From Candidatus Levyibacteriota bacterium (lineage in GTDB: Bacteria; Patescibacteriota; Microgenomatia; Levybacterales; UBA12049): 64,000 nt of DNA. The DNA lies in assembly GCA_029260905.1 (NCBI GenBank), contig JAJDCH010000014.1, positions 24,129 to 88,128 on the forward strand, read 5' to 3'. The translations under genes were made by a program, and so were the position numbers. Within the stretch, counting starts at the first letter, position 1. Each line of letters begins with the position of its first letter. Below are positions 15 through 18,980 of this stretch, in pieces. A model generated the notes under the pieces. The model worked only from the letters and a program-made list of their open reading frames with translations, was not told the DNA's origin and ran no database searches.

Positions 15-1307
15 GTGTTAATTTCACTTGCCGTCAAATTGATGGTGGTTATTTCTTATTTCAACAAAATAGTTGATAATAATATAGGATCTATTATTGG
101 GCTTTTCAAAAGTTACAAATTTGAGAAAAAGAATAACAAAAAAAAGCTGCACGTATTGTTTTTTAACTGGAGAGACACAAAGCATATTTATTCAGGAGGA
201 GCTGAGGTTTATATTCATGAAATTGCAAAAAGATTTGTAGGTGATGGAAATAGGGTTACTGTTTTTTGTGGAAACGATAATAATCAAAGAGCAGAAGAGG
301 TAATTAACGGGGTTGAGATTATGAGAAGAGGTGGAACTTTTAGTGTTTATGTATATGCACTTTTTTATTATCTTTTAAAATTTAGAGGTAAAGTAGATGT
401 TATAATTGATTGTGAAAATGGAATTCCATTTTTTACACCTCTTTTTGTAAAAGAGCCAGTTATTCTTCTTGTACACCATGTTCATCAAGAAATATTCAGA
501 GCATTTTTAAAATTTCCACTAAATTATATTGCAGAATTTTTGGAGGGAAATTTGATGCCATTGGTGTATAGCAAAAAAAAGGTTGTAACCGTCTCTCAAT
601 CATCAAGAGAGGATATTATATCGCTAGGATTTACTGATCCATCAAGAATTGAAATTATCCAAAATGGTGTTTCTGGAAATGTGAGTATTTTGCCAGCTGA
701 AAAAACGACATACCCCTCATTTATTTATTTGGGGAGATTAAAAGAATATAAGAGTGTTGATATTGCCATAAAAGCATTTTCAAAAATTCTTTTAAAACAT
801 AAAGATGCAAGATTATCAATAGTTGGCTGGGGAGAAACTTACCCAAAGCTAAAAAACTTAGTTAATAACCTTGGATTAACTGAAAGTATTAATTTTTATG
901 GAAAAGTTGATGAGGCTAAAAAGATTCAGCTTCTCTCATCGGCTTGGGCAATGATTCAGCCTTCATTATTTGAAGGTTGGGGTCTTACTGTAATAGAGGC
1001 AAATACATGTAAAACACCTGTTATTGCATCAAGGGTAAACGGTCTTGTTGATTCTGTTATTGATAAAAGTACAGGAATTTTGGTTGATGTCAAAGATGTT
1101 GATGGTTTTGCAAAAGCGATGTCAGAGATTATATCAGATCCTCAATATTTGCAGATACTCTCGAAAGAAGCAGAAATTTGGTCAAAGAATTTTAGCTGGG
1201 AAAGAAGCGTTCAGGAATTTTATCAAGTAATCGATAAAACAGTAAGTGAAAATAAATCCAGAGCTTCATTTGCCGGATTTACATTTTGGTCAGACTTGAA
1301 TAATTAA
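15..1307 (+). CDS. Glycosyltransferase family 4 (GT4, RfaB-like). The ORF runs to the window edge, so the true start may lie upstream, or internally near the KKKLHVLFFNWRD segment.
   Basis: The N-terminal GT-B motif HVLFFNWRD...GGAEVYIHEIAKRFV and the C-terminal EGWGLTVIEANTCKTPVIASRVNGLVDSV motif (the EX7E region) are both present. It is the first gene of a tightly packed plus-strand operon. Confidence 0.8.
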   Translation: MLISLAVKLMVVISYFNKIVDNNIGSIIGLFKSYKFEKKNNKKKLHVLFFNWRDTKHIYSGGAEVYIHEIAKRFVGDGNRVTVFCGNDNNQRAEEVINGVEIMRRGGTFSVYVYALFYYLLKFRGKVDVIIDCENGIPFFTPLFVKEPVILLVHHVHQEIFRAFLKFPLNYIAEFLEGNLMPLVYSKKKVVTVSQSSREDIISLGFTDPSRIEIIQNGVSGNVSILPAEKTTYPSFIYLGRLKEYKSVDIAIKAFSKILLKHKDARLSIVGWGETYPKLKNLVNNLGLTESINFYGKVDEAKKIQLLSSAWAMIQPSLFEGWGLTVIEANTCKTPVIASRVNGLVDSVIDKSTGILVDVKDVDGFAKAMSEIISDPQYLQILSKEAEIWSKNFSWERSVQEFYQVIDKTVSENKSRASFAGFTFWSDLNN

Positions 1308-1309
1308 TT

Positions 1310-2218
1310 ATGAAAAATAAAAAATTACTATCTGTTGGAATACCTGCATATAATGAATCAGGAAATATCAAAAAACTGATTAAATCAATATTGTCTCAGG
1401 CTCAAGACAATTTTAGACTAAAAGAAATTATTGTTGTGTCTGATGGAAGTACAGACAGTACTTATGAAAAAGCAAAAAAATATAATAGTTCAAAGCTACG
1501 TGTTGTAAAAAATAAAAAAAGAATGGGAAAATCTTTTTGTCTTAAGGAGATTATCAAAAAAAACAAAAGTGACATTCTTATTCTGATTGATGCGGATGTT
1601 TATATAGATAATTCATTTTTATTTTCATCAATCGTGAATAACTGTAATTTCAAAAAAGCTGGAATTGCAGCAGTTAACGCATCGCCGATTGATGGAAAGA
1701 CATATTTTGAAAAAATTCTTCAATCAGGTGTTGTTGCAATGAAGCAAATATCAAAATTGTGGTTGAAGTCTCACAATTATTTAGCATTTAGAGGTAGTTT
1801 GTTAGCTTTGGATCGCAGATTTTCAAAAAAGTCACAAATAGACGAAAACCTGGTAAATAATGATTCATTTTTTTACTTTAAAGCAATTGAGCTTGGTTAC
1901 TCCCCTATTTTTTTTGAAAACCTTTTTGTTTATTATAAATTACCATCAAATTTCACAGACCATAAAAAACAATCTCTTAGACATTCTTTTGCAAAAAATG
2001 AGTTGAGGATATATCTTAATAAAGACTTAAGCAAGAAACTTAAAATACCATTTCAAATATATTTTTTTGTAACACTTTCAAATATTGCTAAAAATTTTAT
2101 TTATTTTTTCCCTTATTTAATTATTAGTTTTTTAATAAAATTTGGCAAAAAAGAAAAAGTAAAAAATAAATGGATGGTTGCTGAGTCAACCAAGAAAGGT
2201 GTTTATGTCAAAAAATAA
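1310..2218 (+). CDS. Glycosyltransferase family 2 (GT-A fold) with C-terminal transmembrane helices
   Basis: The N-terminus LSVGIPAYNESGNIKKLI...VVSDGSTDST...DADV matches the GT2 DXD-type signature. It starts 3 nt after the upstream gene. Confidence 0.8.
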   Translation: MKNKKLLSVGIPAYNESGNIKKLIKSILSQAQDNFRLKEIIVVSDGSTDSTYEKAKKYNSSKLRVVKNKKRMGKSFCLKEIIKKNKSDILILIDADVYIDNSFLFSSIVNNCNFKKAGIAAVNASPIDGKTYFEKILQSGVVAMKQISKLWLKSHNYLAFRGSLLALDRRFSKKSQIDENLVNNDSFFYFKAIELGYSPIFFENLFVYYKLPSNFTDHKKQSLRHSFAKNELRIYLNKDLSKKLKIPFQIYFFVTLSNIAKNFIYFFPYLIISFLIKFGKKEKVKNKWMVAESTKKGVYVKK

Positions 2219-3215
2219 ATATTCAGATCTAAAAAAAATAAATTTTTTAAAAATAATTAAAAATCAAAAAAAAATCAAGAATTTAAAATGTTTAATTTTT
2301 GGTAATTTTGGCGCTGGCAATATGGGAGATGAAGCAATTCTTGCTGGAGAATTAAATCAATTAAGAAAAAATAAAATTAGTAATATTTTTGTAGTTGGAA
2401 AAAATACAAGATTGATTAAAAAAATCCACAAGGTAAATGCAATTAATCTTTATAAATTGGATAAAATACTTAGAGCACTTTTAAGTTCAGATTTAATAAT
2501 ATTTGGTGGAGGTGGGATAATCAATAAATCTGATATTAAAGGATTTATTTATCAAATATACATTTTAACTATTTTTTTGTTTATTCCATCTTTATTTGAA
2601 AAAAGAATTTATCTAATAGGACTTGGCATATATAAAAATGCTAATAAATTAATTATTGGTTATTTTGTTTCTCTTTTAAAGAAAGTAGAATTTATTTCAG
2701 TAAGAGACAGGGATTCAAAGGTTTTACTTGAAGAAAAAGGAGTGAGTAGTAGTGTTTTTATGGACAATAGTTTTTTGATGGATTTGCTATCAAAAAAAGC
2801 TGTGTTAAAAAATGATTTTTTTTCAAAAAAATATGACAAAAATAAAAAAAATATTGGAGTTGCGCTTGTTGATCCAAAAGACAAAGAGCTTGAAAAAAAG
2901 ATTCTGTCTGAAATAAGCAAACTTGTTTTATCTAAAAAAGATACGGTTTTTTGGTTTTATTATTCATATGTAAATGATAAAAAATTTGTAGATAAAATAA
3001 AAATTAGTATTAGCAAAAAATTTAATGATAAATTTGTTTATTTTGATATTCCAGTAGATTTTGGTCCCAAAATGTTTTTCTCCTCATTTTGCCTAATGGA
3101 TTATTTCCTAGCAAGCAGATTTCATGCTATGGTATTTGCATACCGTCAAAAAATAAAGTTTAGTCCTTTCCCTTATGATCTGAAATGTAGCCAATTCTTA
3201 AATTCAATAAAATAA
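2205..3215 (+). CDS. Polysaccharide pyruvyl transferase family protein (CsaB/WcaK-like)
   Basis: The motif FGNFGAGNMGDEAILAGEL near the N-terminus is typical of the PS_pyruv_trans family. The ATG at 2205 is preferred over the TTG at 2178 that the ORF track used. Confidence 0.55.
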   Translation: MSKNKYSDLKKINFLKIIKNQKKIKNLKCLIFGNFGAGNMGDEAILAGELNQLRKNKISNIFVVGKNTRLIKKIHKVNAINLYKLDKILRALLSSDLIIFGGGGIINKSDIKGFIYQIYILTIFLFIPSLFEKRIYLIGLGIYKNANKLIIGYFVSLLKKVEFISVRDRDSKVLLEEKGVSSSVFMDNSFLMDLLSKKAVLKNDFFSKKYDKNKKNIGVALVDPKDKELEKKILSEISKLVLSKKDTVFWFYYSYVNDKKFVDKIKISISKKFNDKFVYFDIPVDFGPKMFFSSFCLMDYFLASRFHAMVFAYRQKIKFSPFPYDLKCSQFLNSIK

Positions 3216-3219
3216 TAAT

Positions 3220-6200
3220 ATGAAACTTACAAATCTGTTTAATAAAATAACTTTTTTTAAAAACCCAAATTTTTTACTTGCATTTTTTTGCTTTATAATT
3301 CTTGGATTTGTTTTAAGAGGAATTCCTGGAAATCCTACCGCAAAGGATTTGAGTTCTGATGTATGGGTAGATGAGAAGGGGCCACTTGAACTTTCTCCTG
3401 AAAAAGGAAGATACGCTCTTACCTATTCACTAGTTGAAAATAAGTCGATTTATTTTTCAAAGGAATTAGCTCGTTTTTCTGCACCAGATGTAGGATATAT
3501 AAATAATAGATATGTATCTCTTTTTGCTCCAAGCCTCTCAGCTATTGCCATCCCTGGATATATTTTAGGAAAATTTTTTGGATCAGCACAACTTGGTACA
3601 TATCTTACTGTTACTATTTTTGCAGTTCTTAATGCACTGCTGATTCGTTTGATTGCGATAAGAATAGGTGTGGGTAAAAAAGCTGCAATTATTTCATCGT
3701 TTGCTTTTATTTTTGCATCGCCTGCTTTTTCGTATGCAGTCAGTTTTTATCAACATCATTTAAGTACTTTTTTAATTCTATTAAGCATTTATATATTAAC
3801 CTGTTCTAAATCTGTCAGATCACTAGCTGCTATATGGTTTTTGTTTGCATTTGCCGTAACTGTTGATTATCCAAATTTTTTCATGATGCTTCCAATCGCG
3901 CTTACAGCGTTTTTTAGATCTATTAATGTAAGAAACAAATTAGATCAAATAAGCTTACAAGTAAATTATAAAAAACTGTTAACATTTATTGTCGCTTTTG
4001 TTCCATTAATATCTCTTTTATTATTCAATCAATTTTCAAACGGCAATCCTTTTCTTTTATCAGGAGGTGTTGAGAGAGCAATAGGGGTTGAAAAAGATGG
4101 AACACCAAAGCTTGAAGGGGATGTAATACTTGAGAGACTGGATTTAAAACCAGGTGAGGCTTTGCCAGAAAAAACCATACTTGGATTTTTTCAGAACAGG
4201 AATATGTTAAATGGAATTTATATACAGTTATTTAGTCTTGATAGAGGATTTATTGTTTATGCACCAGTTATGCTTTTTGGAATTCTGGGTCTTATATATG
4301 CTTTAAGAAAAAAAATCAGCAATAGTGAACTTTTACTTTCAATTGTTGGATTCAATCTTATTTTATATTCAATGTGGAGTGATCCAGCAGGCGGTTGGGC
4401 TTTTGGAACGCGTTATCTTATTCCATCTTTCGCAATTCTTTCGATATTCATTGGTTTTGCGCTTCGTATTATTAGAAAAAATATTGTTCTCTTACTTATA
4501 TTTATGAGTCTTTTTTCGTATTCAATTGGAGTTAATACAATTGGTGCAGTCACTTCCAATAGAAATCCGCCAAGAGTTGAGATAAATGATTTGGAATCGA
4601 AAACAAAAAAAGTAGAAAAATACACATTCATGAGAAATTTTGAAAAGCTTAACGACGGAAACGTTAAGTCATATTTCTATCAAACAAATGCAAAAGCTAT
4701 TATCTCAGCAAAAACTTATTATTTAATAATCTTACTGATTCTTTTATCTTCAACTTGTTTTATTTTGTATCAGTTTCAAAGAAAAGATGATGAGATATCT
4801 GAAGTTAAAAATAATGAGTCAGAATCGCTTACGAATTATTCGGAAATTGATATTTCTCAAAAATTTGTTCAAAAAGTAAAAAATTTCTTTCACAAAAGAA
4901 CGATCAAGGTAATTGTTGTAAGTTTTTCGACTGTTTCTATTGTTGCTTTTATCATTTATTATTTGAATGGTCTTGGTCTTGCATACAATGATGCAAGATC
5001 ACATCTAGACATTGGGCGACGCGTGGTAGAGAATTTGCAGCCAGGATTTGCTCAGCTTGGGTCAGTCTGGTTGCCGCTTCCCCATCTTCTTATGACTGTT
5101 ACGATCTGGAATGACTTTATGTGGCATTCTGGATTGTCTGGGGCAATACAGTCTATGGTTTCATATGTAGCATGTAATGTAATGATTTATCTATTTCTTA
5201 AAAAACTTAATGTCTCTATGTTTGGTCGAGTAATAGGAGTTTTGATTTTTGCATTTAATTTAAATGTTTTGTATATGCAATCAACTGCCATGACTGAGCT
5301 TTTACTGCTTGCTACACTTCTGGCTGGCACATATCAGCTTTTGTTGTGGTTTGAGTCAGATGAGGTATGGGATTTGATAAAGTCTGCATTTTTTGTCATG
5401 CTTGCAACACTTATCCGTTATGAAGGCTGGTTTTTGCTTCTTTTTTCAGCTATTTTAATTTTTCTGAAAACACTTAAAAAATCTAGTTATAAAAGAGCTG
5501 AAGGAATGTTTCTTCTTTATTCAAGTTTTGCAGGACTTGGTGTTGTCCTCTGGGTGTTGTGGAACACAATGATTTTTAAAGACCCTCTGTATTTCATATT
5601 CGGACCTTATTCTGCGTCTGCGCAGCAGGAGCTTTTGGAAGAAGCAGGAGTACTAGCAACTAAGCACGATTTGTTTTTTTCATTAAAAACATATTATTTT
5701 GCGCTTGTTTATAATACCGGAATGTTTCAAGTTATCCTAGGAGTTGTAGGTGCGCTTTTCCTTTTCTTTGATAAAAGAATATCTAAGAATCTAAAAATGG
5801 CATCTACTGCTCTTTTTGCGCCTTTTATTTTTAACGTGTTAGCTTTGTATCTAGGTCATTCTGTACTATTTGTACAAGGCTTATCAGGCACCTCATGGTT
5901 TAATGTCAGATATGGCTTGATGATGGCACCTGCTATTGCTATATTTATTGGATTTTTTATGGATAGAGTTAAATCAGTAAGACTGACTATTATTGGTATG
6001 TTGCTTTTTGTAACATTTTTTACATTTGTAAATCATGATGCTGTGACAATTGATGATGCGGTAGTTGGAGCAAGTGGGAAAAACGTTAAAGAAGTTAGTG
6101 GGTATTTAGAAGAAAATGCATTGCAAGAGCCTCATTTTGTACTTATATCAGCAGCAAGTCATGATGCAATTATTTTTTCATCAGGTCTCCCAATGAAGCG

Positions 6201-6441
6201 ATTTATTCATGAAGGAACAGGTTTGTATTGGGATTTAGCAACAGCACATCCTGAAAAATGGGCACGCTGGATCATTCTTCGAACTTATGATCAAGGAGAT
6301 CAAACCTACAGAATACTACAATACAGCACATCTTTTAAGGAAAATTATACATTAGTACATAAATTTCCATTTGCCGATATATATGAATTAAAACCTGAAT
6401 TCATATCTGCTCTTGAGACAAATGCAAGCGCTTTTGAATAA
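3220..6441 (+). CDS. Large polytopic membrane protein that looks like two tandem GT-C-type (PMT/ArnT-like) glycosyltransferase modules fused into one 1073-aa protein
   Basis: The hydrophobic periodicity suggests many TM helices. The first half carries an extracytoplasmic loop (YSLVENKSIYFSKELARFSAPDVGYINNRYVSLFAPS) that resembles PMT_2/ArnT. The second half (from about residue 560, AYNDARSHLDIGRRVVENLQPGFAQLGSVWLPLPH) starts a second GT-C-like module. The modules are separated by a K/E-rich linker. Confidence 0.55.
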   Translation: MKLTNLFNKITFFKNPNFLLAFFCFIILGFVLRGIPGNPTAKDLSSDVWVDEKGPLELSPEKGRYALTYSLVENKSIYFSKELARFSAPDVGYINNRYVSLFAPSLSAIAIPGYILGKFFGSAQLGTYLTVTIFAVLNALLIRLIAIRIGVGKKAAIISSFAFIFASPAFSYAVSFYQHHLSTFLILLSIYILTCSKSVRSLAAIWFLFAFAVTVDYPNFFMMLPIALTAFFRSINVRNKLDQISLQVNYKKLLTFIVAFVPLISLLLFNQFSNGNPFLLSGGVERAIGVEKDGTPKLEGDVILERLDLKPGEALPEKTILGFFQNRNMLNGIYIQLFSLDRGFIVYAPVMLFGILGLIYALRKKISNSELLLSIVGFNLILYSMWSDPAGGWAFGTRYLIPSFAILSIFIGFALRIIRKNIVLLLIFMSLFSYSIGVNTIGAVTSNRNPPRVEINDLESKTKKVEKYTFMRNFEKLNDGNVKSYFYQTNAKAIISAKTYYLIILLILLSSTCFILYQFQRKDDEISEVKNNESESLTNYSEIDISQKFVQKVKNFFHKRTIKVIVVSFSTVSIVAFIIYYLNGLGLAYNDARSHLDIGRRVVENLQPGFAQLGSVWLPLPHLLMTVTIWNDFMWHSGLSGAIQSMVSYVACNVMIYLFLKKLNVSMFGRVIGVLIFAFNLNVLYMQSTAMTELLLLATLLAGTYQLLLWFESDEVWDLIKSAFFVMLATLIRYEGWFLLLFSAILIFLKTLKKSSYKRAEGMFLLYSSFAGLGVVLWVLWNTMIFKDPLYFIFGPYSASAQQELLEEAGVLATKHDLFFSLKTYYFALVYNTGMFQVILGVVGALFLFFDKRISKNLKMASTALFAPFIFNVLALYLGHSVLFVQGLSGTSWFNVRYGLMMAPAIAIFIGFFMDRVKSVRLTIIGMLLFVTFFTFVNHDAVTIDDAVVGASGKNVKEVSGYLEENALQEPHFVLISAASHDAIIFSSGLPMKRFIHEGTGLYWDLATAHPEKWARWIILRTYDQGDQTYRILQYSTSFKENYTLVHKFPFADIYELKPEFISALETNASAFE

Positions 6442-6442
6442 T

Positions 6443-7411
6443 ATGAAAAAAAAATTAAAAATTATAATTTTTTTACTTTTAATGATAATTTTTTTGTCAG
6501 GTTTTTATATATTTATAAAAAATAAGATAGATCAAAACTGGCAAGTAAAATCAATTGATACTATGAAATATTCAAGAGATGAGGCTCAAAGAGGAATAAA
6601 TGATAAGAATTATGTTTCATCAATTGACAGACAGATGGCCGAGATTGCTGGAGCTGGGGCAAATTATGTTGCAATAGGAACACCATATGATAAAGAATTT
6701 TTGCCGGTATTGAGGTTGTGGGTAAAAGCAGCAAGAAGACGTGAGCTAAAAGTTTTCTTTAGGGGAAATTTTTCGGGTTGGGAAGAGTGGTTTGGGTATG
6801 AAAAAATTGGAGAAGAAGAACATCTGAGGTTAACAGAAGAGTTTATTCTTGAAAATTCTGATCTTTTTGAAGATGGAGATATTTTCTCATCTTGTCCAGA
6901 ATGTGAAAATGGTCCAAGATTCTCATATCATGACAAAATAGCTGTTTCTAAGCACAGGAGCTTTATCCTACAGGAATACCAATTAACCAAAAAAGCTTTT
7001 GAGGAAATAGAAAAAGATGTTGATTCAAATTATTTTTCTATGAATATGGATGTTGCAAAACTTATTATGGATCGTGAAACTACTGAAAAACTTGATGGAA
7101 TTGTGACTGTTGATCACTATGTAAAAGATACTGAGGTGCTTGCTAGAGACGTAGAAGCACTTGCTAACCAAACCGGTGGAATGATAGTTCTGGGTGAGTT
7201 TGGCGCTCCAATTCCTGATATCCATGGAGAAATGAACAATCAGCAACAAAAAGATTGGATTGAGGCTGTTTTAACAGATTTATCTAATCGTTCTTATATA
7301 AAGGGAGTTAATTATTGGGTGGGTGTGGGGGGCTCTACAGCTCTCTGGAGTGACAGTGGGGATCCCAAACCAGCAGTTGAGGTAATTAGACAATTTTATC
7401 AAAAGAAATAA
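6443..7411 (+). CDS. Membrane-anchored hypothetical protein, possibly a TIM-barrel glycoside hydrolase (GEFG nucleophile-like motif)
   Basis: An N-terminal TM anchor is followed by the motifs VAIGTPYDKEF, FFRGNFSGWEEWFGY and VLGEFGAPIP, which are reminiscent of GH5-type catalytic motifs. The ATG at 6443 lies 2 nt after the upstream stop and is last in the glycan operon. Confidence 0.35.
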   Translation: MKKKLKIIIFLLLMIIFLSGFYIFIKNKIDQNWQVKSIDTMKYSRDEAQRGINDKNYVSSIDRQMAEIAGAGANYVAIGTPYDKEFLPVLRLWVKAARRRELKVFFRGNFSGWEEWFGYEKIGEEEHLRLTEEFILENSDLFEDGDIFSSCPECENGPRFSYHDKIAVSKHRSFILQEYQLTKKAFEEIEKDVDSNYFSMNMDVAKLIMDRETTEKLDGIVTVDHYVKDTEVLARDVEALANQTGGMIVLGEFGAPIPDIHGEMNNQQQKDWIEAVLTDLSNRSYIKGVNYWVGVGGSTALWSDSGDPKPAVEVIRQFYQKK

Positions 7412-7428
7412 CATATAGTAATATACTA

Positions 7429-7457
7429 TTGACAAACTAATTGATCTATGATATAAA
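7429..7457 (+). promoter_or_regulatory. Sigma70-like promoter: TTGACA, 17-nt spacer, TATAAA
   Basis: TTGACA lies at 7429-7434 and TATAAA at 7452-7457 with a 17-nt spacer, 29 nt upstream of the ATG at 7486. Confidence 0.4.
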
Positions 7458-7485
7458 GTGATTCATACTTTCTATAAGTCTTAAT

Positions 7486-8010
7486 ATGAATAAAAATAAA
7501 AGTATTTTAATGGTAACAGCATTCGCCCTTTCGCTTGGGTTTGTTTCACCAGTTGAAGCAGCAGGCGGTGCTCCTGATTTTGGGACATGTGTTGCTCCAA
7601 AAGGAGAAGTAATAGCTAGCTACGCAAATGGGGTTCATGGAATTCCAGGAAAAAGAGAAACCTTTAAAGGTTCAGACACTGTATATAAAATATCTCAAGA
7701 CGTAGTCTTGCAGTGTTTTTGTCCAGAAAACGGCAAAGGAATCCAAACTAATTGGCTTAGAGCAAAAGATCTTTCCAAAACAGAAATAGCAAAGCTCAGA
7801 AAACAAGGATGGGTCTATATCGCAACAGGTTCAGTCTGGGGACTTGATGATGTTGCATATCTTGCAAAAAATGTTGAATATACATGTAAAGCTGGAGTAG
7901 CCACAAAAGGTCTTGCAAATACAGGTAATCTTTTTCTTCTCAATACCCTTCTTTTAGGCGGCATGACAACAGCTGCATTAGCATTTCTTTTAAAGAAATT
8001 CAGAAAATAA
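7486..8010 (+). CDS. Secreted Cys-containing protein with a C-terminal cell-wall sorting signal (LANTG, a hydrophobic stretch and a KKFRK tail); a predicted sortase substrate
   Basis: It has a signal peptide (MNKNKSILMVTAFALSLGFVSPVEA). The C-terminus reads LANTGNLFLLNTLLLGGMTTAALAFLLKKFRK, which is the classic three-part sorting signal with an LAXTG-type motif. A sortase gene follows immediately. Confidence 0.65.
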   Translation: MNKNKSILMVTAFALSLGFVSPVEAAGGAPDFGTCVAPKGEVIASYANGVHGIPGKRETFKGSDTVYKISQDVVLQCFCPENGKGIQTNWLRAKDLSKTEIAKLRKQGWVYIATGSVWGLDDVAYLAKNVEYTCKAGVATKGLANTGNLFLLNTLLLGGMTTAALAFLLKKFRK

Positions 8011-8022
8011 TCGAATTTCATT

Positions 8023-8592
8023 ATGAAGAATGCATTCAACATTTTTCTAATTACTTTATCTATCGTTTTTTTCACACTTGCAGGTTTCCAGGTTTATCTT
8101 CGACTCAATCCCTCACGTACTCTAGCTGTTTCTACTGTTGGTTTTGAAAAATATCGTTATCCTCAGGTATTTGATCAAGTTGATGAAATAGTCGTTCTAA
8201 GCAACCCAATAAGAATTCAAATCGAAGATTTAGGAATTAACTTACCTATTTTTCAATCAAGAATTAATAACGATGTTTGGGAAACAACGGATAAGGGCGC
8301 ATCTTATCTCGTAGAAACGCCAGTTCCTGGAGACAAAGGCAATAGTGTTATCTATGGACATAACTGGAATGGTTTGTTTGCAAATCTAGTAAATACAAAG
8401 TCAGGACAAATTGTGAAAGTGGAGTATGAAGATGGAAGCACTAAGGAATTTGTAGTTGATCATACATCAATTGTAGGTCCTGATAATTCAGAAATTTTAG
8501 CTTTTTCAGAAAAACCGATATTGACAATATATACATGTACTGGTTTTCTTGATTCTCAAAGATTTGTTGTTGTTGCAACACTTAAACAATAA
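8023..8592 (+). CDS. Sortase (transpeptidase, C60 family), probably LAXTG-specific (class E-like)
   Basis: An N-terminal TM anchor is present. The catalytic residues are His in IYGHNWNG, Cys in the TLXTC motif LTIYTCTGF, and Arg in RFVVVATL. It lies 13 nt downstream of the substrate gene. Confidence 0.85.
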   Translation: MKNAFNIFLITLSIVFFTLAGFQVYLRLNPSRTLAVSTVGFEKYRYPQVFDQVDEIVVLSNPIRIQIEDLGINLPIFQSRINNDVWETTDKGASYLVETPVPGDKGNSVIYGHNWNGLFANLVNTKSGQIVKVEYEDGSTKEFVVDHTSIVGPDNSEILAFSEKPILTIYTCTGFLDSQRFVVVATLKQ

Positions 8593-10634: not shown

Positions 10635-10636
10635 TG

Positions 10637-10707
10637 AGCGGGTGAAGGGAATCGAACCCTCGTATGCAGATTGGAAATCTGCTGTTCTACCATTGAACTA
10701 CACCCGC
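10637..10707 (-). tRNA. tRNA-Gly (anticodon TCC)
   Basis: It forms a manual cloverleaf with acceptor gcgggtg/cacccgc, anticodon loop tttCCaa (TCC), a 4-nt variable loop, T-loop ttcgatt and discriminator U. No CCA is encoded. Confidence 0.85.
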
Positions 10708-10780
10708 ATATTCAGATCTATATTTTATAATAATTGAGGTTTTAATACAACTGAGGTATAATATATTTCTGGTTGTTTAT

Positions 10781-10863
10781 GCCGCGGTGGTGGAACGGTA
10801 GACACAGGGGCCTTAAGAGCCCCCGTCCGCAAGGGCGTGAGAGTTCGATTCTCTCCCGCGGCA
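10781..10863 (+). tRNA. tRNA-Leu (anticodon TAA), type II with a long variable arm
   Basis: The acceptor is gccgcgg/ccgcggc, the anticodon stem-loop is ggggc-ctTAAga-gcccc, the long variable arm is cgtccgcaagggcg, and the T-loop is ttcgatt. Confidence 0.85.
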
Positions 10864-10870
10864 CCCCGCT

Positions 10871-10896
10871 GACTAATAGCTTAATAGCTATTAGTC
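10871..10896. repeat. Perfect 10-bp inverted repeat (GACTAATAGC ttaata GCTATTAGTC) between tRNA-Leu and tRNA-Pro
   Basis: Direct inspection shows the arms at 10871-10880 and 10887-10896 are exact reverse complements. No U-run follows. Confidence 0.5.
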
Positions 10897-10913
10897 ATTG
10901 GCTAAATTAAATT

Positions 10914-10990
10914 CGGGGAGTAGCTCAGTTGGCTAGAGCGCGCGGTTTGGGACCGTGAGGTCGGAGGTTCGAGTCCTCTCTCCCCGACCA
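10914..10990 (+). tRNA. tRNA-Pro (anticodon TGG), CCA encoded
   Basis: The acceptor is cggggag/ctccccg, the D-arm is gctc-agttggcta-gagc, the anticodon stem-loop is cgcgg-tttGGGa-ccgtg, and the T-loop is ttcgagt. The 3' ACCA is encoded. Confidence 0.9.
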
Positions 10991-12602: not shown

Positions 12603-12654
12603 AGCTTGACTATATGAGAATTAGAAGCTTTTGTCAATTAGAAATGGGTTTGTA

Positions 12655-12728
12655 GTACGCCCAGAGGGATTCGAACCCCCGACCATGTCGTTAGAACCGA
12701 CGTGCTCTATCCAACTGAGCTATGGGCG
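12655..12728 (-). tRNA. tRNA-Arg (anticodon TCT). The call is tentative because of a C-A mismatch at 27-43 and G at position 32.
   Basis: The acceptor is gcgccca/tgggcgt with G1-U72. The D-arm is gctc-agttggata-gagc (cf. argU), the anticodon loop is gtTCTaa, and the T-loop is ttcgaat. Confidence 0.7.
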
Positions 12729-12816
12729 CATAAAGCTATTTTACCAATTACGCCTACAAGTTGCAATAAGATATCCTATAGTTGAAAATTTGATAAAATT
12801 TTGCTATACTTCAGGC

Positions 12817-13374
12817 ATGAAAGAAGTAAAGATATCTGCTATTGACTTACTGGCATATCCTGATTTTGAAGCAAGTGTGTTTGATAATGGAAAAAAACTT
12901 CATGCTAGGCAATTGGAATTAAGAAATGGTTGGGATCGAAGAATAGAAAATATTTCAAGGGAACCAGGGGTTATTTTGGTTTATTTTTCTATACTTGATA
13001 TCAACCAGATATCTAGTGGTTGGAAGAGCAGTGACTCATTGTTATCAGCTATTGAAAAAGAGGAGATTAAAAGACAACAAAAGTATAATAATCTCCTTAG
13101 AGAAAGGCTTCTTATTATTCCAAGAGATGTGCCCGTTACCAAAGATCTTCTTGGTAAAAAATTGAAGCAAAATGGGCTAATATTTAGCCCAGAAAATTCT
13201 AGGTTGACAGCTTATGGTGAATATACAGAAAATGGAGTAGTGGGCAGGAGAAATGATGTTCGAGTTGCTCTTGGGATATCTGGTATCCATATTGGAACAG
13301 ATTGTGATTTATCTTTATCTATTGAGCAGCAAAGACAGATAACACGTTGGAGAGCAAGAAATAGAGACGAGTAA
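12817..13374 (+). CDS. Hypothetical protein (185 aa), first gene of a three-gene operon
   Basis: The start is set at the first ATG (12817) downstream of the tRNA-Arg gene, because the annotated N-terminus from 12631 overlaps that tRNA. I recognise no domain. The gene is 3 nt upstream of the next gene. Confidence 0.45.
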   Translation: MKEVKISAIDLLAYPDFEASVFDNGKKLHARQLELRNGWDRRIENISREPGVILVYFSILDINQISSGWKSSDSLLSAIEKEEIKRQQKYNNLLRERLLIIPRDVPVTKDLLGKKLKQNGLIFSPENSRLTAYGEYTENGVVGRRNDVRVALGISGIHIGTDCDLSLSIEQQRQITRWRARNRDE

Positions 13375-13377
13375 AGT

Positions 13378-14616
13378 ATGAGAATTTTTAATTTAGAAAC
13401 TAGAAATAAAGATAGGAGTATTGTTCTTTCCGCTGATGTTGTTTTTGATGGGAAAAAGCCTGAGCGAATTTGGTTTGAGATTGAGGATATTCGTGTTGAA
13501 ACTCCAGCTATTGATTACACTCCATTTCTTGCATGTGTTCTTCTTCCCTGTCTCAAACTTGGTGAAAATATTTATATTGAAGGAAATGTTTCTGAAAAGT
13601 TTTTGGAGAAAACTAAAAAGTTGATGGATTTGGTAGTTGGATGGAAAGTGGGATTTAGAAAAATAACAATTGAAACAGCTCCATCCCAGCTTCTTTCTGA
13701 AAAAAGTACAAGTTTGAAAGGAGTGGGGACGTTTTTTTCTGGTGGGGTTGATTCGTTTTATACATATCTAAAGCACAAAAAAGAAATTACTGATCTTATT
13801 CTAATTCATGGATTTGATATACCACTTAAAAATAAGATTTTATCTGAAGAAACAAAAAAACAAATTGCAAAAATTGCAGAAAAAGAAAATTTAAAGTTTA
13901 TTATCGTCAAAACAAATGCCAAAGATATTCTTGAAAAATATTTGATTTGGGATTTTACACACGGAGGCGTGCTAGCTGCAGTTGGACTTTTGTTTGAAAA
14001 TAATTTAAAAAAAATATTTATTCCTGGATCTGTCAGAAAAGATGAACTTTTTCCATATGGCACACATCCTTTGCTTGACCCCCTTTGGTCAACAGAGAAA
14101 ATTAATTTCATTCATGACGGCACAGAATACAATAGGCTTGGCAAAATAATAAATAGTATTTCCAAGTCAAATCTGGCTCTTTCCAATCTTCGAGTCTGTA
14201 CAAAAAACATAAAGGGAAAATATAATTGTTCTGAATGCTATAAATGTCTTCAGACCATGATTGAATTGATAGTTGCAGGAATTTTTGAAAAAGCAAATAC
14301 TTTTGAACATCCTCTTGATCTTAAAAAAGTAAAAAATATGTACTATGACTATTCTCTTCATTATAATGATCAGGGAGAGGAAAACTTAAAAATCCTTAGA
14401 GAACAAAACCGTAAACCGGAATTGCAAAAGGCAATTGAGGAAAGTCTTAAAAAAAGTAGAGAGTTTTCTATGATTAGAACTGTTTCCAAAATTTTTTCTC
14501 AGTTCGATCAGAAATATATGGATAGAAAATTTTACAGATTTGTTTTTGGCATCAGCAATAATCAAGATAGAAATTTTGTTTTTAAATTTTTGATGAAAAT
14601 AGGTTTTTTGAAATAA
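13378..14616 (+). CDS. QueC-like PP-loop ATP pyrophosphatase with N- and C-terminal extensions (412 aa)
   Basis: The PP-loop SGGVDS lies at about residue 120 (FFSGGVDSFYTY). A downstream Cys cluster C-x10-C-x2-C-x2-C (RVCTKNIKGKYNCSECYKC) is spaced about 165 aa after the PP-loop, as the Zn site is in QueC. The extra ~110-aa N-terminal and C-terminal domains are unassigned. Confidence 0.55.
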   Translation: MRIFNLETRNKDRSIVLSADVVFDGKKPERIWFEIEDIRVETPAIDYTPFLACVLLPCLKLGENIYIEGNVSEKFLEKTKKLMDLVVGWKVGFRKITIETAPSQLLSEKSTSLKGVGTFFSGGVDSFYTYLKHKKEITDLILIHGFDIPLKNKILSEETKKQIAKIAEKENLKFIIVKTNAKDILEKYLIWDFTHGGVLAAVGLLFENNLKKIFIPGSVRKDELFPYGTHPLLDPLWSTEKINFIHDGTEYNRLGKIINSISKSNLALSNLRVCTKNIKGKYNCSECYKCLQTMIELIVAGIFEKANTFEHPLDLKKVKNMYYDYSLHYNDQGEENLKILREQNRKPELQKAIEESLKKSREFSMIRTVSKIFSQFDQKYMDRKFYRFVFGISNNQDRNFVFKFLMKIGFLK

Positions 14617-14617
14617 T

Positions 14618-15193
14618 ATGACGACACTTTTCGTACCACTTATTGTTAATATGTTGTTTGGGATATTTAGTCTTAAGATTTTTTGGATTGCTACAGAAAT
14701 TAGAGAATTCCCAAAACGTCTTAATTTTCAGATGTTCAAGACTAACTTTATTGAAATTATCATACTTGTTCTTCAGATTTTTGCATCAGTCTATACTCCT
14801 CTTCCACAAACGCCTTTTGATTCGCTAATTGTTATAACAGGAGTCTTAATGTATGTTGCTGGATTTGTGATTGCTGTTTGGGGAAAGGTGATAATGAGTG
14901 GTTCTTGGGGAATACCTGGTGTGCATGATAAAAAACAAGACGAACTAATTGTCGCTGGTCCTTTCAAATTTAGTCGAAATCCTATTTATGTTGGATTTAC
15001 GCTTTTGTATTTAGGGTTTGCTATTGCAATTAAAAGTTGGTTGGTGATACTTAGAATTCCTCTTATTTTTTATTTTTATAAATCAATCCTTAAGGAAGAA
15101 AAGCTTTTGGAGAAAAAGTTTGGAAGTAAGTATTTGGATTACAAGTCTAAAACTCCCCGCTTTATTTCTTTGAAAAAGAAAAAAAAGGCATAA
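14618..15193 (+). CDS. Isoprenylcysteine carboxyl methyltransferase (ICMT/PEMT-like) family membrane methyltransferase
   Basis: It has 4-5 TM helices. The C-terminal motif FKFSRNPIYVGFTLLYLGFAI matches the RHPxY-hyd-G signature of ICMT family enzymes. It starts 2 nt after the upstream gene. Confidence 0.7.
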   Translation: MTTLFVPLIVNMLFGIFSLKIFWIATEIREFPKRLNFQMFKTNFIEIIILVLQIFASVYTPLPQTPFDSLIVITGVLMYVAGFVIAVWGKVIMSGSWGIPGVHDKKQDELIVAGPFKFSRNPIYVGFTLLYLGFAIAIKSWLVILRIPLIFYFYKSILKEEKLLEKKFGSKYLDYKSKTPRFISLKKKKKA

Positions 15194-16484
15194 GTAGATA
15201 TGCCAGAAGATCAACTCCGATATATTTTGCAAAAAGATCCTGCTTTTTTTTATTGTCATAAGCTTTTTTGTAGTCAATAGTATCTTTTGCAATAGTGTAG
15301 TAAAGAGGCGGAAGCCAATTGTTTGGAAAAAGCTTATGTAGCAGGGTGTCAATCTTGTCTTTGGCAATTGAAAAAGGCTTTTTATTTTTTTCTCTTAGTT
15401 CAATAAAATTTTCTCTTGAAAGCGCTGCCAAAACATCGGTATTTGGCTTTCTGGTGTCCTGATATTTTTTGAAAGCATCTTCAAGAGAGGATGTATTATC
15501 GATCAGGTCTCTTAGAAGCAAACAATCATCAAAAGCAGCACAGGTTCCCTGTCCGTAAAATGGTATTACTCCATGAGCGCTATCACCAACAAGTACAAAG
15601 CTTTTTAAATACCAGTTGTTAGTAAGAACTGTTACAAATGATCCTGTTGGTTTTTTTATAAAGCTTTCAGTAATTTGACTTGAAAGATCAGTTAGGTCTG
15701 GAAAATTTTTATCTAGATAGGTTTTTATAAAAGGTTCGCTTATAAGTTCTTCAAAACTATTTATGCCTTTGAGGGGAAGATTAAACATAAGTGTAAATGT
15801 TTTGTCAGGATTTGGAAAGGCAAGAAGAAGAGAATTTTTTCTTGGCCAGGTGTGGGTTGAATTGTTTCTTAAGTTTAGTTTTGTTGCTGTTTGCTCAGAA
15901 ATATTTACTTCTTTGTATCCCCAGTCTTCGTAAGTTCGCGCTTCTGATTTGTCACTTTTCTCATTTTTAATATTTGTTCTGACAAAAGAATTTACCCCAT
16001 CTGCGCCTATTATTATATCTGCTGAATCTGAAAAATGACCAGATATTTTTTCAAGCACTATTGTTTTGTTAAGAAAATCAATTCTTTGGCATTTTGTGTT
16101 GAAGTAGATTTTGATATTTTCTTTTTTTTCAATTAAGTTAAGGAAAGTTGAATTGAGATTATTCCTGTGAATAGTAAAAAGCACTTCTTTGCCTGATGTG
16201 TCAAACGATGTGAATTGTGGCTTTTTGTTTAAAAAATGCGCAACGTTTCCCTCGGCAAGAATAGTATGCTTTGCTACTTCGTCCCAGATGTTTATGCGTT
16301 TTAAAGCTAAGATACTTCTGTAGTAAAGCGTGAGGTTGTATGAGCGTCCAGATATCTCAGGGTAATGTCTTATGTCTTCACCTGCTTCATAGATATTTAT
16401 ATCGTATTTTTTGCTATCCAAACAAAGCGCCATGAAACACCCTGCTAGCCCACCGCCAATAATAATTATTTTCTTTTTTATCAT
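15162..16484 (-). CDS. FAD-dependent monooxygenase (kynurenine 3-monooxygenase-like / UbiH family)
   Basis: The N-terminus has the GxGxxG Rossmann motif KIIIIGGGLAGCFMALCL. The motif GDSAHGVIPFYGQGTCAAFDDC is the FAD monooxygenase DG/GD signature. The C-terminus is hydrophobic. The 3' end overlaps the convergent ICMT gene by 32 bp. Confidence 0.8.
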   Translation of the reverse strand: MIKKKIIIIGGGLAGCFMALCLDSKKYDINIYEAGEDIRHYPEISGRSYNLTLYYRSILALKRINIWDEVAKHTILAEGNVAHFLNKKPQFTSFDTSGKEVLFTIHRNNLNSTFLNLIEKKENIKIYFNTKCQRIDFLNKTIVLEKISGHFSDSADIIIGADGVNSFVRTNIKNEKSDKSEARTYEDWGYKEVNISEQTATKLNLRNNSTHTWPRKNSLLLAFPNPDKTFTLMFNLPLKGINSFEELISEPFIKTYLDKNFPDLTDLSSQITESFIKKPTGSFVTVLTNNWYLKSFVLVGDSAHGVIPFYGQGTCAAFDDCLLLRDLIDNTSSLEDAFKKYQDTRKPNTDVLAALSRENFIELREKNKKPFSIAKDKIDTLLHKLFPNNWLPPLYYTIAKDTIDYKKAYDNKKKQDLFAKYIGVDLLAYLLMPFFSFSKK

Positions 16485-16498
16485 GTTATAATATTAAA

Positions 16499-16864
16499 AT
16501 GAACCCCCTTATTACTATAAAAGGAAATGTGATAGATGGCAAGAAGCGCGGCAAGGATTTTGGATTTCCAACTGCGAATTTAAAACCTGAAATAACTTTG
16601 CCTGAGGGTGTTTTCGTATCTGAGACTATTGTAGCTAAAAATGTATATAAGTCAGTTACTTTTATTGGAGCAGCAAGAACCTTTAATGAGTCAGATATTA
16701 TAGTTGAAACATATATTATTGATTTTAGTCAGGATATCTATGGTTTGGAAATCGAGGTTAATTTATTGAAAAAAATAAGAGATAATGTGAGGTTTAACAA
16801 CAAAGAAGATTTGATAGCGCAAATGAAAAAAGATGAGGCAGAAACAGTTAGGTTTTTTAATTAG
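16499..16864 (+). CDS. Stand-alone riboflavin kinase (RFK domain only, 121 aa)
   Basis: GKKRGKDFGFPTANL matches the RFK signature GxxxGRxLGFPTAN. No FAD-synthetase (FMN adenylyltransferase) domain is attached. Confidence 0.7.
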   Translation: MNPLITIKGNVIDGKKRGKDFGFPTANLKPEITLPEGVFVSETIVAKNVYKSVTFIGAARTFNESDIIVETYIIDFSQDIYGLEIEVNLLKKIRDNVRFNNKEDLIAQMKKDEAETVRFFN

Positions 16865-17930
16865 TATAACCCATGGTAAGTAGATCTCTGTCAATTTTTT
16901 TGTAAATAACATTTTTTAATTTTATAGCATCAGCTATTTTTTCGACACCTTTTCCTGAAATTGCAGAAACAGATTCTTTTCCACCAATCAGAATTGGCGA
17001 ATGAAAAATGTATACTTTGTCAATAAGTTTTTCATCAATAAAACTTCCAATTACTTCTCCCCCGCCCTCAACAAGAACGCTGAGAATATTTCTTTTTTTT
17101 AGTTCATTTAACAAAGTTCTAATAATTATTTTATCGCTTTTAAATTTGATAAAATCTATTCCTATTTTTATTAACGCCTTTTCATTTTTAGCATCTGCTT
17201 TATTTGTTGTGACAATAATTATATTTTTATCTCTTAAGACATCTGACTTAAGAGGAATTTTTAGAGTGGAATCAAGGATTATTCGAGTTGGGTTTTTTTT
17301 GTTTTTAGACTTTGTTCCAAGATTGGGATTATCTGCTAGAACTGTATTTATGCCAATTAAAATTGACTGATATTCTCCTCTAAGGCTTAAGGCAAATTTT
17401 CGGGATTTTTGATTGCTAATCCATTTAGAATCTTGCGTTTTTGTCGCGATTTTGCCATCAAGACTTGAAGCAAATTTGATAGCAACAAAAGGTCTTTCTT
17501 TTTCAAAAAAACTAAAAAAGGCTTCATTTAAAATCTTTGCTTCTTCTTCAAGAATGCCAATAGATGTAGTTATTCCTGCTTTTTTTAATTTTTCAATTCC
17601 CTCTCCAGATACTTTAGGATTTGGATCAAGCGTTGAGCATATAACTTTTTTGATGCCCGATCTTATTATTAAATCAACACAAGGTGGAGTTTTTCCAGAG
17701 TGACTACATGGTTCAAGATTTACATAAAGTGTTGACCCAGTTAATTTTTCCTTGCAATTTTTAATTGCTTCTACTTCTGCATGATATGAGCCAAATTTTT
17801 TATGAAAGCCATTGGAAATTATTTTGTCATTTTTAACAATAATAGCTCCAACCATTGGATTGGGATTGGTGTGACCGAGTGCTTTTTTTGCAAGTTTAAA
17901 AGTTTGATTTAGGTAAAATTGATCTGTCAT
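16857..17930 (-). CDS. ribD: Bifunctional diaminohydroxyphosphoribosylaminopyrimidine deaminase / 5-amino-6-(5-phosphoribosylamino)uracil reductase
   Basis: The CMP/dCMP deaminase zinc motifs HAEVEAI and LYVNLEPCSHSGKTPPC are present. A C-terminal RibD reductase domain follows. Confidence 0.9.
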   Translation of the reverse strand: MTDQFYLNQTFKLAKKALGHTNPNPMVGAIIVKNDKIISNGFHKKFGSYHAEVEAIKNCKEKLTGSTLYVNLEPCSHSGKTPPCVDLIIRSGIKKVICSTLDPNPKVSGEGIEKLKKAGITTSIGILEEEAKILNEAFFSFFEKERPFVAIKFASSLDGKIATKTQDSKWISNQKSRKFALSLRGEYQSILIGINTVLADNPNLGTKSKNKKNPTRIILDSTLKIPLKSDVLRDKNIIIVTTNKADAKNEKALIKIGIDFIKFKSDKIIIRTLLNELKKRNILSVLVEGGGEVIGSFIDEKLIDKVYIFHSPILIGGKESVSAISGKGVEKIADAIKLKNVIYKKIDRDLLTMGYTN

Positions 17931-18505
17931 TTTAGAAAATGTCCAAGCTTTTGTTTTTTAACTAGTAGATATTTTTGGTTTTGTTTGTTTGGTTTTACTT
18001 CAAGAGGGATTCTTTTTACAATCTCAACCCCATAAGTTGTTACTTGTTTTATTTTATCCGGATTATTTGTCAAAAGATTTATTTTTGCAATGTTTAGGTC
18101 TTTTAATATCTCAACTGCTATTTTGTAATCCCTGTCATCAATTGGAATGCCCAGCTCGTTTTGCGCATCAACAGTATCAAATCCTTTCTCCTGAAGCGCG
18201 TAGGCTTTTATTTTATTAAAAAGTCCAACACCTCGACCCTCCTGGTTGAGATATATAATGATACCTGATTTGTTTTTTTGAATGAGCTTCATGCTTTTAA
18301 TTAATTGTTCCTGGCAATCGCAACGTAGTGATGAAAATGTATCACCAGTCAGGCATTTTGAATGAATCCTTGTAAGGACGGGTTGTTCTTTTAAATCACC
18401 AACTGTCAGTAAAACATGTTCGAGATTGTCTGTTTGGGATTTGTAAATACTAATTTGAAAGTCTCCGTATTTTGTAGGAAGAAATGCTTGTATTGTGTTG
18501 GTCAT
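17927..18505 (-). CDS. ribA: GTP cyclohydrolase II (monofunctional; no DHBP synthase domain)
   Basis: The motifs RIHSKCLTGDTFSSLRCDCQEQ and YLNQEGRGVGL are present, and the protein is 192 aa. It overlaps ribD by 4 bp (ATGA). Confidence 0.9.
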   Translation of the reverse strand: MTNTIQAFLPTKYGDFQISIYKSQTDNLEHVLLTVGDLKEQPVLTRIHSKCLTGDTFSSLRCDCQEQLIKSMKLIQKNKSGIIIYLNQEGRGVGLFNKIKAYALQEKGFDTVDAQNELGIPIDDRDYKIAVEILKDLNIAKINLLTNNPDKIKQVTTYGVEIVKRIPLEVKPNKQNQKYLLVKKQKLGHFLK

Positions 18506-18507
18506 TA

Positions 18508-18975: not shown

Positions 18976-18980
18976 CTCTA

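Follow-up and report, generated by a model that had tools for sequence, protein, structure and literature searches.

Gene B of a Levybacteria locus belongs to a large, unannotated PP-loop protein family that neighbours polysaccharide pyruvyl transferases in surface-glycan loci across a dozen phyla

The window analyzed here is a 64,000-nucleotide (64-kb) stretch of contig JAJDCH010000014.1 from a Candidatus Levyibacteriota bacterium, and its subject is gene B, which encodes a 412-amino-acid (aa) protein resembling in predicted fold the PP-loop ATP pyrophosphatases QueC and QatC. Gene B lies between a small hypothetical gene (A) and a predicted membrane methyltransferase gene (C), on which a gene for a homologue of the flavin adenine dinucleotide (FAD) monooxygenase KMO converges from the opposite strand. 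The nearest relatives of the window are Candidatus Levybacteria (Patescibacteria) genomes, and its G+C content is low, ranging from about 0.26 to 0.40 per 2-kb step and mostly lying near 0.35. The features at the locus are the following:

12655..12729, minus strand: tRNA-Arg(tct), called by ARAGORN, the upstream bound of the A-B-C transcription unit
12817..13374, plus strand: gene A, a 185-aa lineage-specific hypothetical protein, ending 3 nt 5' of B
13378..14616, plus strand: gene B, a 412-aa QueC/QatC-fold PP-loop ATP pyrophosphatase-like protein
13738..13755, plus strand: the PP-loop SGGVDS of B (residues 121-126), a pyrophosphate-binding motif, from the translation
14197..14247, plus strand: C274-x9-C284-x2-C287-x2-C290 of B, CTKNIKGKYNCSECYKC, a QueC-type predicted zinc-binding cluster, from the translation
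14618..15193, plus strand: gene C, a predicted 191-aa polytopic PEMT/ICMT-superfamily methyltransferase, 1 nt 3' of B
15162..16484, minus strand: KMO-homologue FAD monooxygenase, converging on C with a 32-bp overlap

The longest mechanically called open reading frame of gene A opens at 12631, and because this extension runs across the minus-strand tRNA-Arg(tct), position 12817 was taken as the start. An original prediction, made from the sequence of this locus, had described A, B and C as an uncharacterized operon with gaps of 3 and 2 nt; the A-B gap is indeed 3 nt, and the B-C gap is 1 nt. Likewise, its PP-loop is found at residues 121-126 as described, whereas the cysteine cluster that it read as C-x10-C-x2-C-x2-C is spaced C-x9-C-x2-C-x2-C. 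Promoter and terminator scans performed no better than on shuffled sequence.

Gene B gave no significant match in Pfam (E up to 1), NCBIfam or PADLOC (E up to 1), and PDB sequence searches with the protein alone and with the family profile returned only noise. Weak AsnB- and ArgG-related NCBIfam matches are confined to residues 108-186, the PP-loop region. The relatives of B form a large family without annotation, with 8768 clusters at 50% identity found at E values up to 1e-3 and 3253 at E values up to 1e-30; scoring of word-matched candidates covered 1280 clusters at 90% identity, and relatives occur at 524 places, in many phyla, in a collection holding one genome per species. Members are found in Patescibacteria, Actinomycetota, Cyanobacteria, Planctomycetota, Proteobacteria, Bacillota and haloarchaea, and every name given to them by the source databases is "hypothetical protein."

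Out of 321 diverse homologues, 318-319 carry the PP-loop [ST][GA]GVDS and 319-321 keep the four cysteines, so the motifs of B are not a chance occurrence. The invariant motifs of the family are FF[ST][GA]GVDSFY, HGFD, TN, WDxxHGG, PYGTHPxLDxLW, HDGxExxRxxK and LRVCxxNxxGxYNCxxCxKCxxTM, the third of them also given as (E)TN. The window holds a single copy of B, which keeps the family-consensus residues except for three conservative changes and has no clade-specific switch positions. A neofunctionalized form of B in the Levybacteria clade was considered and rejected, as no clade-specific residues were found.

Tandem B-B fusions (P0122, P0133, P0176, P0220 and P0265) and adjacent B paralogues (loci L049, L050 and L104) are frequent in the family, and the enzyme may act as a dimer or on two sites. 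Two homologues, one on a Gemmobacter aquarius plasmid (L103) and the other on a Halobacterium zhouii plasmid (L102), adjoin a gene for an ATP-grasp domain protein, which is a second carboxylate-activating enzyme; the former also adjoins a GNAT gene.

An AlphaFold2 model of B, built on 24 homologues, reached a mean predicted local distance difference test score (pLDDT) of 88.7 and a predicted template modelling (pTM) score of 0.88, and was compared by Foldseek with the PDB and with viral protein models. The top PDB match was QatC in the QatBC complex (9y02_B; E value 7e-5, probability 1.0, 382 columns, template modelling (TM) score 0.44), followed by TtuA and then by QueC (3bl5 and 2pg3; probability 0.94-0.96, over the core only), for which the TM score normalized to the target was 0.52-0.59. 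Among the viral models, phage QueC proteins match the core of B at probability 1.0. The SGGVDS motif follows the strand formed by residues 115-119 of the model, the arrangement that defines the PP-loop ATP pyrophosphatase superfamily. Judged from the model, B is a soluble PP-loop ATP pyrophosphatase-like protein of the QueC/QatC fold, with a four-cysteine site that probably binds zinc.

With QatC, B shares its size (about 400-430 aa), a QueC-type Rossmann core, SGGxDS, the four cysteines and extensions at both termini. In QatC, the N- and C-terminal extensions added to the QueC core hold its protein substrate (PMC13279940), and zinc sites have been described for both QueC and QatC (PMC13279940, PMC13329287). 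However, B is only about 12% identical to QatC and has no PADLOC QatC match. The motifs listed for QatC in PMC13329287, D(x)4R(x)7WxR, RxRxxxF/Y, P(x)4TK and C(x)19CGxCxxRR, do not appear in the B family alignment. The QatC operon partners qatA (KAP ATPase), qatB and qatD (TatD nuclease) are found neither near B in the window nor in about 75 related loci, and QatC acts on a protein, whereas the partner of B described below is a glycan enzyme. Cap9 of type IV CBASS is a minimal QueC of about 185 aa encoded next to a CD-NTase, in contrast to the 412 aa of B, which has no CD-NTase neighbour and no PADLOC match. A Qat or CBASS defence role was rejected, as both the partner genes and a PADLOC match are missing.

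The likeness to QueC (PF06508) lies in the core fold, in SGGxDS and in a cysteine motif of the form C-x(8/9)-C-x2-C-x2-C at the same place. The canonical QueC motif is C-x8-C-x2-C-x2-C (PMC13329287), and the C-x9 form of B is a variant of it that is invariant in the family. By contrast, the PF06508 profile gives no match to B in Pfam (E up to 1), the QueC substrate and catalytic motifs YxQxHxxE, VPxRN and YPDC are missing from the B family alignment, and hhalign of the family profile against Escherichia coli QueC yields a probability of 2% with only the 10-residue PP-loop aligned. B also has about 110 more residues at each end and no queuosine context. Canonical QueC function in queuosine synthesis was rejected on these motifs and on context.

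WbpG-type N-acetyl sugar amidotransferases (NASAT), placed in "cluster 5" of PF06508 (PMC13329287), are likewise PP-loop enzymes of 300-400 aa that tailor surface polysaccharides and are encoded in glycan clusters. Their cysteine motif, CxxC(x)6CxC, differs from that of B and stands in another order relative to the other motifs; no NCBIfam or Pfam model of this kind matches B, none is among its top 50 structural matches, and no link between NASAT and pyruvyl transferases has been described. An ordinary WbpG-like amidotransferase was rejected for want of a profile match. B thus falls outside the QueC, QatC, Cap9 and WbpG-like groups. A recent survey of the diversification of the QueC scaffold took PF06508 as its start, and such PF06508-based surveys missed the B family because it lies outside that family.

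The gene neighbourhood of B was compared between the Levybacteria clade, represented by at least 10 loci in which B shares 47% identity or more with the protein of the window, and 64 loci outside it. Outside the clade, the neighbours of B are dominated by polysaccharide pyruvyl transferase (PF04230), glycosyltransferases of families 2 and 4 (GT2 and GT4), flippases and epimerases. In an unbiased Pfam census of the 111 immediate neighbours of B, PF04230 accounts for 30, GT2 for 9, flippases for 7 and 5, and GT4 for 5. By position, PF04230 is found at -1 in 17/60 cases and at +1 in 13/58, falling to 3/54 at -2, 2/55 at +2 and at most 8% further out. The pair is present in 29 of the 64 loci and occurs in both gene orders; of 30 adjacent pairs, 26 share a strand, and their gaps span -147 to +63 nt, a single one lying outside -25 to +63. 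All nine sampled genes adjacent to B score above the PF04230 gathering threshold, and a purpose-built pyruvyl transferase hidden Markov model (HMM) matches in 42 loci, all within the roughly 60 outside the Levybacteria clade. The pyruvyl transferases next to B belong to subtypes of about 300, 350 and 430 aa.

The two proteins are also found fused. In P0184, residues 1-394 correspond to B and residues 425-757 to PF04230 (1.7e-44), and P0252 and P0175 are further fusions of the same kind, giving at least three in all; B is additionally fused to GT2 in P0195 and to a class I methyltransferase (Methyltransf_11) in P0214. RefSeq-annotated records offer independent instances, written here with PYR for pyruvyl transferase. 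On plasmid p4 of Azospirillum brasilense, a pyruvyl transferase family protein (WP_137142849.1) and the B homologue behind it (WP_247896056.1) form an isolated pair; the order in Gloeothece PCC 7822 is GT1-GT4-GT-PYR-B, Priestia aryabhattai has GalT-PYR-B-B-GT-D-GalU, and in Gemmobacter PYR is divergent from B-ATP-grasp-GNAT. Outside the Levybacteria clade, B is therefore a specific partner of PF04230 in surface-glycan loci across a dozen phyla. The ketal-pyruvyl transferases of PF04230 (CsaB, WcaK, EpsO, GumL and Pvg1) are partners of B and not its homologues; to our knowledge, the characterized ones work without a PP-loop partner, and our literature search turned up no publication that connects pyruvyl transferases with a PP-loop enzyme.

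A pyruvyl transferase gene is also present in the window, in a surface-glycan/sortase cluster (15..8592) about 10 kb upstream of B. The cluster and the genes beyond the KMO homologue comprise the following features:

15-1307, plus strand: GT4 (Pfam), first gene of the surface-glycan/sortase cluster
1310-2218, plus strand: GT2 (Pfam)
2178..3215, plus strand: polysaccharide pyruvyl transferase (PF04230, 1.2e-28, 101.2 bits against a cutoff of 25.3)
3220-6441, plus strand: 1073-aa protein, no family assigned
6413-7411, plus strand: 332-aa protein, no family assigned
7486-8010, plus strand: 174-aa protein, no family assigned
8023-8592, plus strand: sortase (Pfam), last gene of the cluster
16499-16864: flavokinase, beside the KMO homologue
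16857-19568, minus strand: riboflavin operon with RibD, GTP cyclohydrolase II, lumazine synthase and riboflavin synthase

The order in the window, GT4-GT2-PYR-U1073-U332-U174-sortase (U, unassigned protein), recurs in relatives that keep B inside the cluster. In Woesebacteria (L072) it reads GT4-GT2-GT2-?-GT2-PYR-B-U1073a-U1073b-U332-?-U174-sortase, in L078 B-U1073a-U1073b-U332-U174-sortase, and in L008 (GT2+PYR)-U1073a-U1073b-U332-B; the window cluster is also syntenic with L022, L047, L061, L007 and L019. In L019, another Levyibacteriota genome, B follows the orthologous GT4 (4e-152) and GT2. Among the loci compared, L007 supplies the closest relative of the window's pyruvyl transferase (6e-56), and there that gene directly adjoins B; the gene at 2178-3215 probably serves B as a partner in trans. 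Most simply read, B left the cluster in the Levybacteria clade, came to lie about 10 kb away and became coupled to C with its chemistry kept.

Several observations accompany this cluster. Its order of glycan, putative surface-protein and sortase genes is kept across Woesebacteria, Levybacteria and other Patescibacteria, and it may constitute a system for glycoproteins or cell-wall polymers that only bacteria of the candidate phyla radiation (CPR) have. In L072, L078, L008 and L047, two neighbouring genes of about 550 aa each take the place of the window's 1073-aa protein, which is accordingly either a fusion in the window or split in the other loci. No Pfam match was obtained for the 1073-, 332- and 174-aa proteins, nor a PDB sequence match for the first, and relatives of the 332-aa protein show weak CarboxypepD_reg matches. 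Between the cluster and the B-C module lie four tRNA genes (Gly-tcc, Leu-taa, Pro-tgg and Arg-tct, at 10636-10990 and 12655-12729); tRNA genes are common rearrangement points, and these may mark the site of the relocation of B. In the riboflavin operon, the GTP cyclohydrolase II is only 192 aa long, and none of the genes was seen to encode a 3,4-dihydroxy-2-butanone 4-phosphate synthase (RibB) domain.

Within the Levybacteria clade, the constant block consists of B, then C, then the converging KMO homologue, and it persists through four upstream and three downstream contexts. Gene C follows B in all loci of the clade, starting either 1 nt after its end or within it, at an ATGA overlap of 4 nt; a C-type HMM matches only this clade, and the database homologues of C lie on the same contigs as B homologues. 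A metagenome scan with gene C returned only seven distant, uninformative loci. B and C are thus a real, translationally coupled pair confined to this clade, the only place where we found an ICMT/PEMT enzyme (the group of Ste14, Ma-ICMT and LmtA) paired with a PP-loop enzyme. By its sequence, gene C, which contains RNPIYVGFTLLYLG, is assigned to the PEMT/ICMT superfamily of membrane methyltransferases: it matches PF04191 (PEMT; 1.1e-13, 52 bits against a cutoff of 25), falls just under the PF04140 cutoff (21.3 against 24), and aligns over its full length with Ma-ICMT (4a2n, 4e-6), including the C-terminal S-adenosylmethionine-binding motif RxPxYxG...EE..L...FG..Y..Y. It remains far below all NCBIfam equivalog cutoffs, those of the protein-S-isoprenylcysteine O-methyltransferase and LmtA models included (44.9 against 160 and 51.5 against 325).

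Other methyltransferase arrangements were also seen. A Methyltransf_24 (PF13578) gene, which the window does not have, lies just upstream of B or of A-B in L001 (5157-5957), L010 (6652-7389), L018 (6256-6951) and L099 (7990-8685), and methylation may be a recurrent companion step of B. At 5062-6555 of L098, a more distant C homologue (39% identity) directly follows a Peptidase_M48 (Ste24-like) gene without B, a pairing that recalls, by analogy, eukaryotic CAAX processing by Ste24 and Ste14. In L099, the 1101-aa protein encoded upstream has no similarity to the window's 1073-aa protein.

From the gene neighbourhoods and fusions that tie B to PF04230 and to glycan clusters, we consider it very probable that B is a glycan-tailoring partner of the pyruvyl transferase. 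The fuller statement, that B is an adenylating enzyme whose substrate is the pyruvyl carboxylate itself, has in our estimate about an even chance of being correct; here the substrate, the nucleophile and the role of C are inferred from the chemistry of QueC, Cap9 and LarE, all of them carboxylate-adenylating PP-loop enzymes (PMC13279940, PMC13329287). According to this scheme, the pyruvyl transferase would work at the cytoplasmic membrane face, placing a 1-carboxyethylidene group (a pyruvate ketal) on a lipid-linked sugar, and B would adenylate the new carboxylate with ATP, releasing pyrophosphate. AMP would then be displaced by a nitrogen nucleophile, which could be the ammonia that QueC uses or an amine of the kind used by Cap9, and the product would be an amide or an amide-linked conjugate that has lost the negative charge. 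In the Levybacteria clade, C, a member of a family whose substrates are embedded in membranes, would act on the same membrane-anchored intermediate. Extended to the whole family, the proposal becomes more tentative, with a chance somewhat short of even: the B family may carry out an undescribed, widespread modification of pyruvylated glycans in which the ATP-activated carboxylate of the pyruvate ketal is converted to an amide or, if QueC and Cap9 are a guide, to a nitrile or to an amide-linked conjugate with an amine or protein.

Several points weigh against the pyruvyl carboxylate as substrate. PP-loop enzymes also adenylate carbonyl or ureido oxygens, as in GMP synthase, ArgG and WbpG-type enzymes, and the target therefore need not be a carboxylate. 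The window's B is not adjacent to the pyruvyl transferase and sits instead with the methyltransferase and the KMO homologue, so its role could have shifted; moreover, a C that methylated this very carboxylate would be a competitor of B and not a later step. Outside the Levybacteria clade, about one third of the loci have no PF04230 within 8 kb. For instance, orphan B genes in Sulfuricurvum (L046, L059 and L060) lie beside fumarate reductase/succinate dehydrogenase and molybdopterin genes, and in Aquisalinus luteolus (L081) B lies beside GMC and GFO oxidoreductases with no pyruvyl transferase within 8 kb. Our literature search also found no report of an amidated or otherwise modified pyruvate ketal. 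Separately, Sulfuricurvum STA_65 carries two identical B copies on separate contigs.

Among the alternatives, the one that survives best, although we judge it rather unlikely, is that B tailors another group of the same sugar or repeat unit, converting an acetamido to an acetamidino group in the manner of WbpG/NASAT or amidating a uronic acid, so that its link to the pyruvyl transferase would reflect a shared acceptor sugar and not the pyruvyl group. The strong glycan context of B and the AsnB-type amidotransferases that occasionally neighbour it are consistent with this idea, and PP-loop amidotransferases of lipopolysaccharide pathways exist (PMC10607449; WbpG cluster 5, PMC13329287). On the other hand, B matches no NCBIfam or Pfam amidotransferase model, the carboxylate-activating enzymes QatC and QueC lead its structural matches with NASAT outside the top 50, the adjacency and fusion are specific to PF04230 and not to other glycan genes, and the Azospirillum pair stands alone without other glycan genes. 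The original prediction had named an ordinary N-acetyl sugar amidotransferase with glycan neighbours, or an unconserved cysteine cluster, as what would speak against it; glycan neighbours are indeed present around B, while a WbpG-like match is missing and the cysteines are conserved.

We regard as quite unlikely a second alternative, in which the B of the Levybacteria clade was recruited, with the KMO homologue and the methyltransferase, to hydroxylate, carboxyl-activate and methylate a metabolite derived from an aromatic amino acid. Such a pathway would resemble, in outline only, the quinolobactin siderophore route from kynurenine. The converging gene encodes a true full-length KMO homologue (2.5e-56 to 7.6e-54 against solved KMO structures, residues 4-420); B, C and this homologue are the only genes that stay constant through the four upstream and three downstream contexts, L099 included; B lies outside the glycan cluster in this clade; and CPR genomes are on record as carrying KMO genes (PMC12577380). 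However, the window's B keeps the family-consensus residues without clade-specific substitutions, and this sole copy lies within 64 kb of the pyruvyl transferase cluster that holds B in other lineages. No other kynurenine-pathway genes were seen among the annotated neighbours in the window, the convergent KMO gene is not co-transcribed with B-C, and its position may be explained by the neighbouring flavokinase and riboflavin genes. The KMO homologue is a third constant neighbour without an assigned role. In L034 and L077, two loci of Saccharibacteria type, monooxygenase-like genes likewise lie at 5-6 kb from B.

The original prediction had proposed that A, B and C form a self-contained operon that modifies a nucleobase, a peptide C-terminus or a lipid through two carboxylate-directed activities, a possibility that now appears very unlikely. 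The tight spacing of the three genes on one strand speaks for it, as does the plausibility, by family analogy, of carboxylate-directed activity in both B and C. Gene A, however, is not a conserved member of the system: it has no family match in Pfam, NCBIfam or PADLOC, a large-database search returned only the gene A protein itself, and recognizable homologues are limited to the window's close relatives L010 (4e-21) and L011 (6e-17). A single-sequence AlphaFold2 model of A was unusable (pLDDT 39.5). Related loci frequently have Methyltransf_24 in its place upstream of B, several loci have neither, and the constant module is B-C-KMO homologue. The family-wide partner of B is a glycan enzyme, so that the comparative data point to PF04230 in surface-glycan clusters, and nothing ties the system to nucleobase or tRNA genes. 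The descriptive parts of that prediction fare better: its QueC-like B with extra domains of about 110 aa agrees with the QatC match over 382 columns and the QueC match over the core, its ICMT/PEMT-type C with the PF04191 score and the full-length 4a2n match, and its KMO-like monooxygenase overlapping the 3' end by 32 bp with the full-length homology (2.5e-56). Its statements that no Qat or CBASS context is present and that the system is unrecognized are borne out by the missing PADLOC match and by a family known only as "hypothetical."

Finally, it is extremely unlikely that B is a QatC/Cap9-like ligase, perhaps one serving in defence or signalling, joining a carboxylate small molecule to the N-terminus of protein A or of a surface protein of the sortase cluster: QatC is its best whole-length structural match, with substrate-holding extensions at both termini, and a small protein is encoded 3 nt upstream, but there is no PADLOC match and no qatA, qatB, qatD or CD-NTase neighbour, the QatC-specific motifs including C-x19-CGxCxxRR are missing, gene A is not conserved and has no N-terminal glycine tail, and the conserved partner is an enzyme, PF04230, that is sometimes fused to B.

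The finding that emerges is broader than the A-B-C operon, namely a cross-phylum family tied to glycan pyruvylation and present here in a rearranged, clade-specific arrangement; what had been taken for an orphan operon is reassigned to the surface-glycan/sortase cluster 10 kb upstream. What is new is a family of a known superfamily with a conserved partner, PF04230, and a predicted glycan modification. Much of the negative charge on bacterial capsules, exopolysaccharides and secondary cell-wall polymers comes from pyruvate ketals, which are also the ligand of S-layer homology (SLH) domains. If the proposed chemistry is correct, the modification would neutralize or functionalize a charge that is recognized by SLH domains and other lectins, and the B family would join QatC and Cap9 as a third case in which the QueC scaffold was independently put to new use, and would be the first of them to act on a carbohydrate. 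For structural glycobiology, the coupling of B with PF04230 predicts a glycan modification step that has so far gone undescribed. The pair is present in the culturable Azospirillum brasilense, Priestia and Gloeothece, and a large unannotated family thereby gains a testable context.

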